From Syntrophobacterales bacterium (lineage in GTDB: Bacteria > Desulfobacterota > BSN033 > WVXP01 > G020346125), in assembly GCA_020346125.1 (NCBI GenBank), contig CP070774.1:2006290-2056775 (forward strand): a stretch of DNA of 50,486 bases, in the 5' to 3' direction. How positions within the stretch are numbered: the stretch's first letter is position 1; every line of letters starts with the position of its first letter. Below are positions 1 through 4,683 of the stretch, one piece after another. The translations under genes and the position numbers were made by a program. The notes below the pieces were generated by a model. That model made no database searches. It worked only from the letters and a program-made list of their open reading frames with translations, and had not been told where the DNA came from.

Positions 1-149
1 CCAAAAGAAAAGTTCCCATCTCCCACCAAGTAATCATCATACTTCTCTTTTCCCTTGGAATGGGATTGATAACCAATGCGCTTCGATCACCCCCCCTTCC
101 CTTAATTGGAAAGTGGTTTCAAGGGGCTTTATCGTTAAAAAGGGATTGA
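1..149 (+). pseudogene. Partial or truncated paralogue of the N-terminal membrane segment of the rhodanese gene (5' end outside the window)
   Basis: Frame 3 reads [48 protein letters not shown]; nt 24-112 are identical to 2067-2155. Confidence 0.6.
24..112 (+). repeat. 89-bp exact direct repeat, copy 1 (copy 2 at 2067-2155)
   Basis: Base-by-base identity at offset 2043, with similar but diverging flanks. Confidence 0.9.
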
Positions 150-438: not shown

Positions 439-696
439 TTCGGATGCGGCGCTGCCAGTACGACGAGCTCCATTATCACCGAAAAGATCAAGGGAAGGGA
501 CATTGAGGAAGCCTTAAGGATTTCAGGTGAAACGGCCAAGGACATATTGAGCCAATCGCCCAAGGATAAGGTTACCTGCTTCACCTTAGCCGCCAATGCA
601 TTGAGGCTGGCCATAGAGGAATACCGCTGCAACAAACAAGAAATCCATGAGAAGGGGGGGATGAGTTCGGAGGATCTGAAAAAAGCCATCTCTTGA
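439..696 (+). pseudogene. iscU: IscU/NifU-N Fe-S scaffold, C-terminal fragment
   Basis: Frame 1 reads FGCGAASTTSSIITEKIKGRDIEEALRIS..KVTCFTLAANALRLAIEEY, resembling FGCGAAIATSS..KMHCSVLAEEAL; no start codon or N-terminal half. Confidence 0.7.
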
Positions 697-778
697 GCTG
701 GAATTTGTTATATAATAGTATTGGTATAGTTTTTGCAAATTAATAGAATCAGAAGTCAGTAACGGAAAGGGAATCTCA

Positions 779-1897
779 ATGAGAAGGATGGTATTGCTGA
801 TCGTTATGTTTGGGCTGTTGGCCCTTTGCCAACCCATGGGAGCGGGTGAATTGACGATCATCTATTCCAATGATACGGGTGGAGTAATTGATCCCTGTCC
901 CACTTGAAGGAACAAGTTTATAGGTGGGCTGGCCCGGCGGGTCACCTTTATAAAGGAGCTCAAAAAAGAAGGAAAAGGGGCCCTCATCCTCGACGCGGGC
1001 AACCTTTTCTTTAAGGGCAAGGGCTCTCCCTCTTCTCCCGATAAGGATAAAGCCATATTGATCGCACGGGCTTATCACCGCATGGGATATCAGGTCGTCA
1101 ATATCGGCTCTGATGACCTTTCGGCCGGAATTGAATTCCTGAGGGAATTACAGAGGGAGATTCATGTACCCCTCATATCTGCCAACCTCCTGGATCAACA
1201 GGATGGAAAGCCGATCTTCAAATCCCATATGGTATTGGATTTAGGTGGGATAAGAGCCGGCGTTTTCGGCCTGACCTCTGATGTTCGCCACAATAAAGGG
1301 GTTACCCCTAAAGGATATGTTATATCCAATCCGATAACGGCGGCGAAGAGGGTTGTGGCCGAACTTGGGAAGGATTGTGATATCATCGTAGCCTTGAGCA
1401 ACCAGGGCTCTCTTAAGGAATATACCAAGCTCGTTCAACAGATGGAGGAGATTCAGTTCATCTTTGGGAGTGGAGGTAGGGGAACCTATCATCAAACCAT
1501 TCGATCCGATAGAAACTGGAAGGCATTTCTCTTTCGGGCTCGTACAAAAGGGAGGTACCTGGGAAGGATCGACTTGAAAGTACTAAAGGGATCCCGTGAT
1601 TTCGTTGACCTCAGCCGCAAGGCCAATATAGAGGGACAAATCAACATGATCGAAAAGCAATTAGATTCCTACCGAAGGGGAACGGGAAGGGCCAAATCCA
1701 TTCCCCGGGATAAGAGGGAGGAGTATATCAAGAAATTGGAGAAATTTATGAATAGGTCCGAGGCCCGATTAAGTAAGTTGGAGAGGGATGCTAGCTTGAA
1801 TAGCACCTTTACTAATACTATCGTTCCCCTCGATAATAAGGTAAAGGAGGATCCCGAGATGATAGAATGGGTAGATCAGTTCAAGAGGGGCCAATGA
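779..1897 (+). CDS. UshA-like (5'-nucleotidase fold) exported probable selenoprotein, 372 aa, Sec encoded by UGA at 905-907 (CPTU motif)
   Basis: ATG 779 with purine-rich RBS is in frame with ORF 1058-1897; signal peptide, then ELTIIYSNDTGGVIDPCPT-UGA-RNKFIGGLARRVTFIKEL..LILDAGNLFF, a continuous UshA N-terminal fold across the single UGA. Confidence 0.85.
918..953 (+). promoter_or_regulatory. Putative bacterial SECIS hairpin
   Basis: TTATAGGTG(918-926)...CACCTTTATAA(943-953) stem with GC-rich apical part, beginning about 11 nt after the UGA; folded by eye only. Confidence 0.55.
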
Positions 1898-2036
1898 ATA
1901 GGCGTGAATGTTACCCCCACGTGGGCTTTATGGAAAGAGCGGACAGCGAAATAATCCTCAAACTATGGGAATATAAGAAACCCATGATTACCTATTTCGG
2001 TTTTTTCAGTGGGATCTTTTCTTCCCTAAACAACTA

Positions 2037-2534
2037 ATGGCTGCAAAAGGGAAAGTTCCAATCTTTCACCAAGTAATCATCATACTTCTCTTTTCCCTTG
2101 GAATGGGATTGATAACCAATGCGCTTCGATCACCCCCCCTTCCCTTAATTGGAAATTGGTTTAAAGGGACTTCGTCATTAAACGTGGGAAGGAATATTTC
2201 CACGGTTTCCATAGAGGAGGCCGTGGTAAAATTTATAACCCAGGATGCCCTTTTTCTCGATGCTCGTTCAAGAGCTGATTACCAATTGGGGCATATAAAA
2301 GGAGCCTTGAATTTACCCGTTCATGATGAGGATTTCGGCGAAAGGCTTCATGAGTTCGTGTTAGAAGTGAATCATGACAGGGAACTAATCGTCTATTGCG
2401 AAGATATCGACCCTACCTTAAGCCCTGAACTTGCCTCCATATTAACAAGCATGGGATACAAGAAGGTTAAAATCCTTGCCAATGGGTGGAGCGAATGGAA
2501 TGTGGCGGCAATGCCTTTCGAAGTGGATAGATAA
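2037..2534 (+). CDS. Membrane-anchored rhodanese-like domain protein
   Basis: N-terminal TM helix; FLDARSRADYQLGHIKGALNLP, IVYC, LANGWSEW rhodanese motifs. Confidence 0.85.
   Translation: MAAKGKVPIFHQVIIILLFSLGMGLITNALRSPPLPLIGNWFKGTSSLNVGRNISTVSIEEAVVKFITQDALFLDARSRADYQLGHIKGALNLPVHDEDFGERLHEFVLEVNHDRELIVYCEDIDPTLSPELASILTSMGYKKVKILANGWSEWNVAAMPFEVDR
2067..2155 (+). repeat. 89-bp exact direct repeat, copy 2
   Basis: Identical to 24-112. Confidence 0.9.
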
Positions 2535-2543
2535 ATAGATAAT

Positions 2544-3029
2544 ATGAAGGGATTGATACGTTCCGTCGTTAACCTTTATACCAGCCCCTATGCTTCCGTC
2601 ATATTCCGCTGGGCCGTGGGCTTGATCTTCATCTATGCCAGCATGGATAAACTACTTCACCCCTCGGCCTTTGCAGTTGCTGTGTATAATTACAAGATCC
2701 TTCCAGGAAGCCTCATTAACCTGGTTGCGATAACGCTCCCCTGGGTGGAGCTGATCTGTGGAATCCTCCTTCTCATCGGTTTGTTTCCCCGAGCAACAGC
2801 CCTTATCCTGAGTATTCTGCTCTTACTCTTCTTCTCCGCTCTCTCGATAAGCCTCTACCGAGGCATCGATATCAGTTGCGGTTGTTTCGCAGTAACTACA
2901 ACTGTGGATAAAATTGGCATCTCCTACATGGTAAGAGACCTTCTTGTCCTGGCGATGAGCGTTCAAATCCTATTCTTCGACGGAAACCTCATGAGCATAG
3001 AACGTCTTCTCCCTACCAGTTACCGTTGA
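2544..3029 (+). CDS. MauE/DoxX family membrane protein
   Basis: Four TM helices; GLIFIYASMDK, LPWVELICG, RGIDISCGCF and RDL motifs. Confidence 0.85.
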   Translation: MKGLIRSVVNLYTSPYASVIFRWAVGLIFIYASMDKLLHPSAFAVAVYNYKILPGSLINLVAITLPWVELICGILLLIGLFPRATALILSILLLLFFSALSISLYRGIDISCGCFAVTTTVDKIGISYMVRDLLVLAMSVQILFFDGNLMSIERLLPTSYR

Positions 3030-3119
3030 TTGATACAAATTTCTTGAATTTTTTAATGTCTGAAGTTAACCTTTCGCCATGGTATCCGACGGATAATGCT
3101 AATCAGTATGGAGTCAAAC

Positions 3120-3911
3120 ATGAAGGATTTTTTTCGAAAATTAGCGGATATTGAAAAAGAGGGAAGACGGGCAGCCCTTGCCATCGTCGTAAGTACCAAA
3201 GGATCAACCCCGAGAAAGGCCGGGACCAAGATGATCATTATGGAGGATGGGAGTACCTTCGGAACCCTGGGAGGTGGCGGTCTGGAGAAAAAAGTTATCG
3301 AGGAATCCCTCGAGGCCCTGAAAGGGGGAGAAGCGAGACTGACATCCTTTAATCTGGATGGAACGAAGGGAAACCTGGACATGATGTGTGGGGGCGAGAT
3401 TGAGATCTACATCGAGCCAATTCACCAACCGGAGAAACTCATCATATTCGGTGCTGGTCATATTACAAAGGCTTTGGCACCTCTGATGCAGTCAGTTGGC
3501 TTTCGGCTAACCGTGGTAGAAGATAACCCGGAAGTGCTGGGAGAAGATCAGCTTGCGGATATGGAAGGGCTCATTTCGGAAAATATGGAGTCTTATGCAG
3601 AAAGGCTTCCCCCTGAAAGCAACACATATATCGTACTTCTTACCAGAGGCTTTTCAACGGACAGGGCCATTCTTGAACACCTCATCGGAAAGGACTTTCG
3701 CTATGTGGGGATGATCGGAAGCCGGAAAAAGATTAGGACCATCAAGGAGGAGTTGATCTCGAAGGGAATTGAAAAGGAGTATTTCTCCAAACTCTACGCT
3801 CCCATAGGCCTTGATATAGGAGCAGAGACGCCTGAGGAGATTGCCCTCAGTATCGCCGCTGAAATCATCTCTGTTAGAAAAGGCAAGTCCATGTATCGAG
3901 GAAAGGGGTAA
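3120..3911 (+). CDS. XdhC/CoxI family molybdoenzyme accessory protein
   Basis: GSTPRKAGTKM, GTLGGG, MMCGG, GAGHI, YVGMIGS, APIGLDIGAETPEEIALSIAAEI; GGAG RBS before ATG 3120. Confidence 0.9.
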   Translation: MKDFFRKLADIEKEGRRAALAIVVSTKGSTPRKAGTKMIIMEDGSTFGTLGGGGLEKKVIEESLEALKGGEARLTSFNLDGTKGNLDMMCGGEIEIYIEPIHQPEKLIIFGAGHITKALAPLMQSVGFRLTVVEDNPEVLGEDQLADMEGLISENMESYAERLPPESNTYIVLLTRGFSTDRAILEHLIGKDFRYVGMIGSRKKIRTIKEELISKGIEKEYFSKLYAPIGLDIGAETPEEIALSIAAEIISVRKGKSMYRGKG

Positions 3912-3921
3912 ATTAAACCTT

Positions 3922-4683
3922 ATGAGTCCGGAAATATTCAAAATTGGCCCCATGAGCATCCGATGGTATGGAGTGCTTATCCTTGCCGGGGTGATCCTCG
4001 GACTTTTCCTCGCGGGACGAGAGGCCAAACGACAGGAGATGCGCATCGAGGTAATCTATGATCTATTCTATTATATGCTTATAAGCGCCATTGTAGGAGC
4101 AAGGCTTTACTATGTCATCTTCTCCTGGGACCTGTACAGAAATAATCTGGGAGGGATCATTGCCTTTTGGCACGGGGGACTCGCAATTCATGGGGCAATT
4201 ATCGGAGGAACTTTTTCAGCGCTGATTTATACCCGCCTGAAGGGGATTTCCTTCTGGAAGGTTGCCGATTGCTGCGCCCCAAGCCTTATCCTCGGCCAGG
4301 CCATTGGGCGCTGGGGTAACTTCTTCAACCAGGAAGCTTATGGAAGGCCGACAGATTTGCCTTGGGGAATTTTCATCGATGAGGCCCACCGACCCTTTCG
4401 ATATATCCAACAGACCCACTTTCACCCTACCTTCCTGTATGAGTCCCTCTGGGATTTTTGCGTATTCCTCTTCTTACTGTGGGGCAGACGGAAAAAGGGC
4501 ATAATCCCGGGCGATGTATTTCTCGCCTATCTCATGCTGTATTCCCTCGGTAGATTCTGGATTGAAGGCCTCAGGATGGATAGCCTGATGTTCGCCGGGT
4601 TTAGAGTCGCCCAGATCGTAAGCCTTTTTCTCATTCTCTGCTCCTCAATAATCTTGATTCAACACCGTAGGGGAAGACAATAA
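3922..4683 (+). CDS. lgt: Prolipoprotein diacylglyceryl transferase
   Basis: IRWYG, GARLYYV, GGLAIHG, GQAIGRWGNFFNQEAYG, HPTFLYES, RFWIEGLR. Confidence 0.95.
   Translation: MSPEIFKIGPMSIRWYGVLILAGVILGLFLAGREAKRQEMRIEVIYDLFYYMLISAIVGARLYYVIFSWDLYRNNLGGIIAFWHGGLAIHGAIIGGTFSALIYTRLKGISFWKVADCCAPSLILGQAIGRWGNFFNQEAYGRPTDLPWGIFIDEAHRPFRYIQQTHFHPTFLYESLWDFCVFLFLLWGRRKKGIIPGDVFLAYLMLYSLGRFWIEGLRMDSLMFAGFRVAQIVSLFLILCSSIILIQHRRGRQ

Follow-up and report, generated by a model that had tools for sequence, protein, structure and literature searches.

UshA-like selenoproteins with a CxU motif were tabled, and given one sentence of discussion, in the 2008 Global Ocean Sampling (GOS) analysis of Zhang and Gladyshev (PMC2398784), and they were tabled again in reviews of 2022 (PMC9312934) and 2026. 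A CxxU form, 'family 2' (NF049981), is tabled as 'GenBank annotated' in PMC13188914, and a further curated model, NF041198, covers forms with the motif P-C-G-U. The literature searched assigns no function to any of the UshA-like selenoproteins. Here we describe a gene of this kind at positions 779–1897 of a 50,486-nucleotide (nt) stretch, called the window throughout, from the genome of a Syntrophobacterales bacterium (GenBank assembly GCA_020346125.1, contig CP070774.1, positions 2,006,290–2,056,775). To judge from the sequence and its relatives, 779–1897 is very probably one intact selenoprotein gene. The best overall explanation of its product, which we consider reasonably likely, is an exported, ligand-free selenoprotein of the UshA fold that would perform selenol chemistry in the periplasm.

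The best-scoring model for the window protein is NF041198, whose members share its fold, signal peptide, helical hairpin and the placement of selenocysteine (Sec) in the loop after strand 1, and are likewise mostly without ligands (DxM, GN, GEKD, SQ and GGGG). The window protein differs from them in its C-P-T-U motif, one residue longer than C-G-U, in the absence of the tetrahaem domain (four CxxCH motifs) that they carry (loci L030, L059 and others), and in a putative selenocysteine insertion sequence (SECIS) hairpin that is shifted downstream by about 8 nt and made up of other codons. Since its motif reads PCPTU, the P-C-G-U of the model is not present. It scores 225.2 bits, below the cut-off of 275, with orthologues at 209–238 bits, and the match stops at profile position 376, so that positions 377–519, where members carry the four CxxCH motifs, are unmatched. 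NF049981 has a CxxU motif (PCP[ST]U) followed by GGLARR, as does the window protein, in which the motif is C40-P-T-U43. This model gives 107.8 bits against a cut-off of 140 (114–121 bits for orthologues of the window clade) and aligns by the N-terminal third only, the best stretch being profile positions 1–90 of 262 on residues 25–113. Of 301 genomes sampled across the phylum, 2 have a true member of NF049981 that passes the cut-off, and both read as short proteins of about 290 amino acids (aa), with 288 aa of open frame in L074 and, counted from the probable start, about 290 aa in L073. The window clade thus belongs to neither curated family, yet it is clearly of the same kind.

Three more distant systems bear on the comparison. 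Escherichia coli UshA and other 5′-nucleotidases (1ush, 1hp1, 2z1a) share with it the fold, the order of motifs and an expected periplasmic location; against them, the window protein has lost four of the five ligand motifs, has no C-terminal domain, and carries an extra helical hairpin and the Cys/Sec motif. The thiosulfohydrolase SoxB (TIGR04486; 2wdc, 4uwq) belongs to the same superfamily and is periplasmic, acting on cysteine-bound sulfur species, but the window protein reaches only 44.5 bits with its model (cut-off 550), compared with 83–114 bits for the basal relatives introduced below. SoxB needs a dimanganese site, and this site is absent in the window protein. Finally, the small thiol-oxidoreductase-like selenoproteins with CxxU or UxxC (SelW-like and AhpD-like, in the table of PMC2398784) share the CxxU motif and a possible selenenylsulfide, whereas the window protein is not thioredoxin-like, is predicted to be exported, and has relatives in which the Cys is dispensable.

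Read directly from the window, ATG 779–781, an in-frame TGA at 905–907 and a terminal TGA at 1895–1897 form a single frame on the forward strand, with the following elements:
721–749, forward strand: weak promoter-like site, TTGGTA-17-TAGAAT, about 30 nt 5′ of the start codon
764–771, forward strand: Shine–Dalgarno-like purine run GGAAAGGG, predicted from sequence, 7 nt 5′ of ATG 779
779–1897, forward strand: full selenoprotein coding sequence, 372 codons and a TGA stop, with a UshA-fold product
896–907, forward strand: CxxU motif C40-P41-T42-U43, with TGT 896–898 as Cys and TGA 905–907 as Sec
917–954, forward strand: SECIS-like hairpin with an extended stem and an apical stem-loop at 930–944 (UGGCCC-GGC-GGGUCA)
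With TGA read as Sec (U), the translation has 372 residues and starts MRRMVLLIVMFGLLALCQPMGAGELTIIYSNDTGGVIDPCPT-U-RNKFIGGLARR. Gene calling with translation table 11 yields two open reading frames (ORFs) in its place, one of 42 aa (779–907) and one of 279 aa from TTG 1058, and the entry from the same contig in a public protein collection (P0002) is the 279-aa form. A promoter scan of 500–3200 returned five sites, not above the chance level of 3.8 ± 2.3 in shuffled sequence. The contig of one public run is identical to the window across 609–1012 (this run may be the source sample), and contigs of two more runs cover 602–1125 with 11 differences each; among the differences listed, none is at 905–907.

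A six-frame search of 41 genomes (the window genome, seven others of the genus, five of the order and 28 of the class) found UshA-like relatives in 40 of them. Each of the seven congeneric genomes has an orthologue that is 63–71% identical and essentially full length, and its single in-frame TGA falls in the same column (PCPTU). Of the 69 strongest matches, 58 have one in-frame TGA and 11 have none. We read 50 of the 69 (30 fetched and 20 chosen), and because all 11 loci without TGA were included, Cys forms are over-represented in this sample. The UGA occupies the same alignment column in every UGA-bearing locus read (39 of 39) and in all eight genus loci. Eight of the 11 UGA-less loci have Cys at this column (EPCxTCPE, i.e. 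PCxTC); in the other three, L058 has Cys-Cys nearby, L045 has Arg and has also lost the Cys (DPSGRF), and L055 has no N-terminus, as it lies at a contig end. Among distant database proteins, P0060, P0068, P0070, P0073 and P0078 carry CGC where others have CGU.

The codons before the UGA also behave as coding sequence. Across the eight genus orthologues, the 21 codons before it have a proportion of synonymous differences (pS) of 0.43 and of nonsynonymous differences (pN) of 0.09, and a ratio of nonsynonymous to synonymous rates (dN/dS) of 0.15, compared with 0.30 for the first 60 codons and 0.28 for the first 125 codons after it. The piece before the UGA is therefore coding in frame and is the most constrained part measured. 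A first-pass annotation, made by a model from the letters of the window, had placed the start at ATG 779 rather than 1058, with a single in-frame UGA at 905–907 in DPCPT-U-RNKFIGGLARR, and had looked to homologues for UGA or Cys at this position. The start at 779 is supported, the UGA lies exactly there, and the homologues have UGA in one column in 39 of 39 loci, with Cys in eight paralogues. Genome-wide recoding of TGA was also considered and ruled out: six of the eight orthologues end in TGA, where similarity ceases, and the selA and selB frames of the genome, which are free of internal stops, also speak against it.

The truncation seen in P0002 extends to the whole neighbourhood of the protein in databases. 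A collection of 5.8 billion proteins contains 57 close clusters (P0003–P0059; 59–73% identity), all of 228–332 aa, and none of the 57 is long enough for a Cys-containing full-length form. The four cluster proteins printed start at residues 48–51, just past the UGA, and relatives are called at 322–332 aa. One source attributes such a protein to a Thermodesulfobacteriota metagenome-assembled genome, and other sources label them '2′,3′-cyclic-nucleotide 2′-phosphodiesterase (5′-nucleotidase family)'.

The window genome has selA (643.9 bits) and selB (376.2 bits), both above curated cut-offs, and an N-terminal fragment of selD that carries its own in-frame UGA (..AKAAG-U-AAKIGPG..) and runs into a gap between contigs. 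This selD is itself a selenoprotein gene (L009, G000:C1:1446433–1449672, ORF from 1483), ending after about 86 codons at the gap. The assembly consists of 238 pieces joined by runs of 100 N and is 75.9% complete, with only 20 tRNA genes; an Rfam scan of the window gave two tRNAs only. A tRNA-Sec over the cut-off (78 bits) was found in four of the eight genus genomes. The Sec machinery that the first-pass annotation would have the genome carry is there as selA, selB and the Sec-bearing selD fragment; selC, to which we return below, was not found in this incomplete assembly.

Next to the UGA, the minimum-energy fold of the 65 nt from this codon pairs 917–923 with 948–954, 926–928 with 945–947 and 930–935 with 939–944, leaving a GGC loop at 936–938, 28 nt past the UGA. 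As a rule, the G-rich apical loop of a SECIS lies 16–37 nt from the UGA. The hairpin that the first-pass annotation had noticed after the UGA is thus present at 917–954, and its apical stem, GGCCC-GGC-GGGCC, is kept in all eight orthologues, with one-sided changes only. The other Sec clades encode G-G-[LVI]-A as GGC GGT xTx GCC, by which the stem is formed. GGC serves as the first Gly codon in 16 of 17 CP[TSVG]U loci and in 13 of 14 loci of the PCGU group (13 PCGU forms and L063, which has PSGU), and the Ala/Val/Gly codon ends in C in the same proportions (16 of 17 and 13 of 14). By contrast, forms with Cys or without Sec have GGA at the first Gly in 9 of 10 loci and no stem, L045 being one of the nine. 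This locus (G021:C168) belongs to the PCGU clade; it reads DPSGRF and keeps the tetrahaem domain, and its codons no longer form the SECIS stem. The window clade has GGA, GGT or GGG at the first Gly, and its hairpin is formed a few bases further on, from GCC CGG CGG GCC. Its stem codons CGG CGG are invariant in the eight orthologues, while the CP[TSVG]U and Cys groups use mainly AGR for these two Arg residues and PCGU forms have Lys instead. With caveats that are weighed below, we infer that the hairpin at about 917–954 is a SECIS.

We next consider the protein. No Pfam domain was found in the read-through product, neither Metallophos (PF00149) nor PF02872, and its best NCBIfam models are NF041198 and NF049981, both under their cut-offs as given above, followed by weak UshA and SoxB matches. 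An AlphaFold2 model with a 39-row alignment as input has a mean predicted local distance difference test (pLDDT) score of 87.4 and a predicted TM-score (pTM) of 0.84. A Foldseek comparison with the Protein Data Bank (PDB) ranks 1hp1 and 1ush, both E. coli UshA, first (E about 4e-22, query TM-score (TMq) 0.59–0.66), followed by other 5′-nucleotidases, and the alignment profile matches the Thermus 5′-nucleotidase 2z1a (E 5e-35). The matches to solved nucleotidases stop inside their N-terminal domains, and the window protein stops after 372 residues. Two alignments, one to 2z1a and the 39-row one of relatives, give these motif correspondences and regions:
Motif I: D-T-H in 2z1a, D32-T33-G34 in the window protein
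Motif II: DAGD in 2z1a, D72-A-G74-N75 in the window protein
Motif III: GNHEF in 2z1a, G110-S111-D112-D113-L114 in the window protein
Motif IV: LSHLG in 2z1a, L206-S207-N208-Q-G in the window protein
Motif V: GGHSH in 2z1a, G230-S231-G232-G233-R234 in the window protein
779–844, forward strand: predicted Sec-type signal peptide, residues 1–22 (MRR, a 13-residue hydrophobic core, MGA then GE)
1610–1798, forward strand: helical hairpin (the 'coiled-coil insert'), residues 278–340, with model helices at 278–300, 303–307 and 310–340

The metal ligands are lost in four of the five metallophosphoesterase motifs, and D32, the first Asp of motif I, is the sole survivor. Because the nucleotide-binding C-terminal domain is lacking as well, phosphoesterase activity is very unlikely. 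A UshA fold with a dismantled metal site, as the first-pass annotation had read it, is what the Foldseek and profile matches and the ligand losses indicate; the degenerate ligands it listed (DxH to DTG, GD to GN, GNHE to GSDD, SH to SN, GHxH absent) agree with the alignments, and the missing substrate-binding domain agrees with the lack of a PF02872 match. The charged coiled-coil insert that it placed near the C-terminus appears in the model as two long helices, but it is not peculiar to the window protein, because every superfamily clade has this hairpin, some with about 36 extra residues there. The signal-peptide-like N-terminus also stands, as a hydrophobic run shared by all aligned relatives that possess an N-terminus. 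The protein therefore probably acts outside the cytoplasm, and its export is predicted with good confidence. It is not a lipoprotein: that reading was ruled out because Cys17 is Trp in two of the eight orthologues. In the model, C40 and U43 lie on the loop that leads from strand 1, at whose end the former motif I stands, to helix 1 (GGLARR...), and short bridges at 39–40 and 48–49 flank the motif.

The relatives fall into four groups, whose lengths, motifs and scores with NF041198 are as follows:
Group (a), other members of the order and class: CP[TSVG]U, 366–445 aa, GD, G[DE]DD, SH and GGH kept, 240–257 bits
Group (b): PCGU, 511–540 aa, ligands lost, four C-terminal CxxCH motifs, 420–484 bits, the sole group to pass the cut-off
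Group (c), Cys forms: PCxTC, about 370 aa, only the His of motif IV kept, 211.9 bits (L049, the sole one scored)
Group (d), the window clade: CPTU, 372 aa, all His gone, 209–238 bits
The motifs kept in group (a) amount to most ligands of one former metal site. A rooted tree of 24 chosen rows (4 + 5 + 8 + 4 rows, with three outgroups that bear the metal site) places two (a) groups at the base and joins (b), (c) and (d) in one derived group with an internal trichotomy (support 88/86). The window clade, with eight rows, has support of 100/100 and a long stem branch of 0.9. Because the rooted tree puts group (a) at the base, CxxU in the form CP[TSVG]U is, on this tree, the older state of the superfamily, and the window clade is derived and has lost the remaining ligands. 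The first-pass annotation had taken CxxU for a variant beside the CxU motif that it gave for known UshA-like selenoproteins. That CxU motif agrees with the tables of PMC2398784 and PMC13188914, but CxxU as a novelty does not hold, since it is already catalogued (NF049981, PMC13188914) and is basal in the tree. A quick tree had paired the window and Cys clades (approximate likelihood-ratio support, SH-aLRT, 91), which suggested that Sec was gained independently from a Cys ancestor; this candidate was dropped, as the more careful rooted tree leaves the window, PCGU and Cys clades as a trichotomy. As far as sequence can tell, the window protein represents a branch of the UshA-like selenoprotein superfamily that stands alone and has no ligands; it is genuine as a selenoprotein but, being of a kind already catalogued, no surprise.

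The gene order in the genus is cysE, an iscU/nifU-like gene, the UshA-like gene, XdhC and lgt. In the window, the gene is followed by:
2037–2534, forward strand: membrane-anchored rhodanese-domain protein (PF00581, 62.9 bits), directly 3′ of the UshA-like gene
2544–3029, forward strand: MauE/DoxX-family membrane protein (PF07291, 89.6 bits; PF07681, 37.6 bits)
3096–3911, forward strand: XdhC-family maturation factor
3841–4683: lgt, after XdhC
XdhC lies beside the orthologue in five of the eight genus loci. This synteny is short-range and comes from one genus, and it says little about function. The rhodanese has a putative active-site loop, C-E-D-I-D-P, that is unusually acidic, and its best NCBIfam matches, all far under their cut-offs, are to rhodanese-related selenoprotein families (TsoB and LYCAU). 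In mycobacteria, DoxX and rhodanese proteins reportedly act together in thiol homeostasis of the envelope.

Upstream of the gene, window positions 1–139, at the start of the contig right after a run of N, repeat 2046–2182 at the start of the rhodanese gene with 92% identity, and contigs of several runs match the window only to about 141–146, with different sequence upstream. The window start looks like a misjoin at a contig end. Positions 142–451 are a piece of cysE (residues 65–173 of the congener protein, interrupted by a gap of 6 residues and frameshifted near 385), and 439–696 are a piece of the iscU/nifU-like gene (residues 57–144). The contigs of three runs have one base fewer at 385 and diverge from the window at 257–262; because they disagree with the window here, the damage to the upstream genes is probably an assembly error and not decay.

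The other groups have contexts of their own. PCGU genes adjoin a cytochrome b561-type membrane protein (nine loci), a NapC/multihaem cytochrome (seven) and DUF1684 (eight), which suggests that the PCGU forms belong to a quinol-linked periplasmic redox module. The PCGU paralogues with the tetrahaem domain are L030–L040 and L059–L062. Among the basal CP[TSVG]U forms, eight loci have a B12-binding radical SAM gene that begins at or beside the stop codon of the UshA-like gene, and an FdhE-like gene lies upstream in four loci of the order-level group; the loci with radical SAM or FdhE context are L027, L029, L039, L041, L043 and L046–L048. The Cys form adjoins an ACR3 arsenite efflux gene in three genomes (TIGR00832, 468.5 bits against a cut-off of 282.8) and a UXX-star glutaredoxin-like selenoprotein in four (91.7 against 72 bits; ..GTGS-U-PHT..), in two of which a CP[TSVG]U paralogue lies 3–4 kb from the Cys form. 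Loci with such contexts include L070 (G030:C91, 3225–9607), L069 and L071, and the cluster of L070, with its ACR3 gene, also encodes a PhnD-like binding protein and another transporter of the SBF family.

From these data we propose the following mechanism. The UGA at 905–907 would be decoded as Sec with the aid of the hairpin at about 917–954, giving a 372-residue precursor with a Sec-type signal peptide, whose exported mature part would adopt the fold of the UshA N-terminal domain. Its functional centre would be the selenol of U43, on the loop after the former motif I and usually accompanied by C40, and its chemistry in the periplasm may be redox or the transfer of a species of sulfur, selenium or a metalloid. 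For the haem-fused paralogue, the quinol-linked module could supply electrons by way of the c-type haems. The window form would need them from a separate partner, and in strains with the rhodanese and MauE/DoxX pair this pair is the candidate. As to the precise chemistry, we consider a selenol redox or chalcogen-transfer role as probable as its absence.

Several observations weigh against this proposal. The rhodanese and MauE/DoxX pair is present in four of the eight genus loci, the window included, and a fifth has a 38-aa rhodanese remnant. The confidence of the AlphaFold2 model drops at the motif (mean pLDDT 74 for residues 41–50). Neither Rfam nor ARAGORN found tRNA-Sec (selC) in the window genome, in the incomplete assembly described above. 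For the hairpin, the 76-nt stretch is not more stable than its shuffles (z = −0.13), the stem shows no compensatory double changes in the eight orthologues, and the invariance of synonymous sites within the genus (three of five codons, against a background of 25%) gives P = 0.11; the comparison of codons between clades seems the better argument for a SECIS than these stability and within-genus tests. Two relatives have Sec without the Cys (L063, PSGU; L074, PVPTU), and a third, L045 (PSGR), has neither. The Cys-less Sec relatives argue against an obligatory Cys–Sec redox pair, and the first-pass annotation's 'redox-type' reading of the motif is conjectural.

The main rival to periplasmic selenol chemistry is that the Cys/Sec motif is a metal or metalloid ligand, with which the protein would bind a soft ion such as As(III), Sb, Hg, Cu or Ni in the periplasm in order to sequester, sense or pass it on. 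Three to four ligands of one site (GD, G[DE]DD, SH and GGH) persist in the basal CP[TSVG]U forms, a half-site that leaves room for a mixed Asp/His/Cys/Sec site, and the sequence C-P-x-U/C-G presumably resembles the CPxCG knuckles of rubredoxin type. The Cys paralogue, moreover, stands in an ars-like context, with ACR3 in three genomes and the UXX-star selenoprotein in four. These arsenic-type neighbours, however, belong to a paralogous clade and not to the window clade, which has no His ligand and no motif II Asp, so that two soft ligands would remain, and the haem-fused PCGU paralogue points to electron transfer. We therefore hold a ligand role to be unlikely, though it survives better than the other alternatives.

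An inert scaffold or binding module, such as a ligand-binding protein or a partner subunit in which Sec is structural or historical, or a protein with residual hydrolase activity, appears decidedly improbable. The 5′-nucleotidase fold and its structural motifs (LSANL, GGxARR) are kept and weak matches to SoxB and UshA models persist, but Sec is costly and is nevertheless retained in all eight genus genomes, the close clusters include none long enough for a full-length Cys form, no other measured part is as constrained as the motif region, and four of the five catalytic motifs are without their ligands. A pseudogene with a nonsense codon, or a pair of separate ORFs, with the UGA ending a 42-codon peptide and the real start at TTG 1058 or codon 48–51 or so, has next to nothing left to recommend it: gene callers do split the locus in this way (279 aa in P0002, relatives at 322–332 aa), tRNA-Sec was not found in the assembly and the sequence just upstream (1–700) looks damaged, but the UGA keeps its column in 39 of 39 loci with Cys there in paralogues, purifying selection 5′ of it is strong, the shortened product would have neither strand 1 nor the signal peptide nor the motif that is best conserved, the genome has selA, selB and selD, and the upstream damage looks like a contig-end assembly problem on which other runs' contigs disagree with the window.

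In the passages of the literature that were searched, we found no account of a window clade that neither curated model covers and that every database entry seen gives in truncated form, nor of stepwise metal-site loss, a shifted SECIS or contrasting paralogue contexts. Public protein sets thus contain an entire branch of apparently exported selenoproteins, from Thermodesulfobacteriota of sediments, in shortened form only; the called proteins lack both the signal peptide and the active motif and are named '2′,3′-cyclic-nucleotide 2′-phosphodiesterase' or 'hypothetical protein'. The branch scores under both curated models that could rescue it, and a third model or lowered cut-offs would fix its annotation. 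The stepwise loss of the metal site, the haem-fused paralogue with its cytochrome b and NapC neighbours, and the Cys paralogue beside ACR3 and a glutaredoxin-like selenoprotein are leads to function. Taken furthest, they may mean that the UshA-like Cys/Sec proteins form an uncharacterised family of periplasmic selenoenzymes in which a selenol has progressively replaced the dimetal centre, a generalization that we rate as quite improbable as a whole. Within such a series, the rooted tree supports basal CP[TSVG]U forms that keep one metal site and CPTU, haem-fused PCGU and Cys branches that appear to have lost theirs. If it were true, the family would reduce or transfer chalcogen or metalloid species, such as polysulfide or thiosulfate and selenium or arsenic compounds, and the window protein would be its minimal catalytic module, with the adjacent pair of membrane rhodanese and MauE/DoxX protein as its helpers in some strains.

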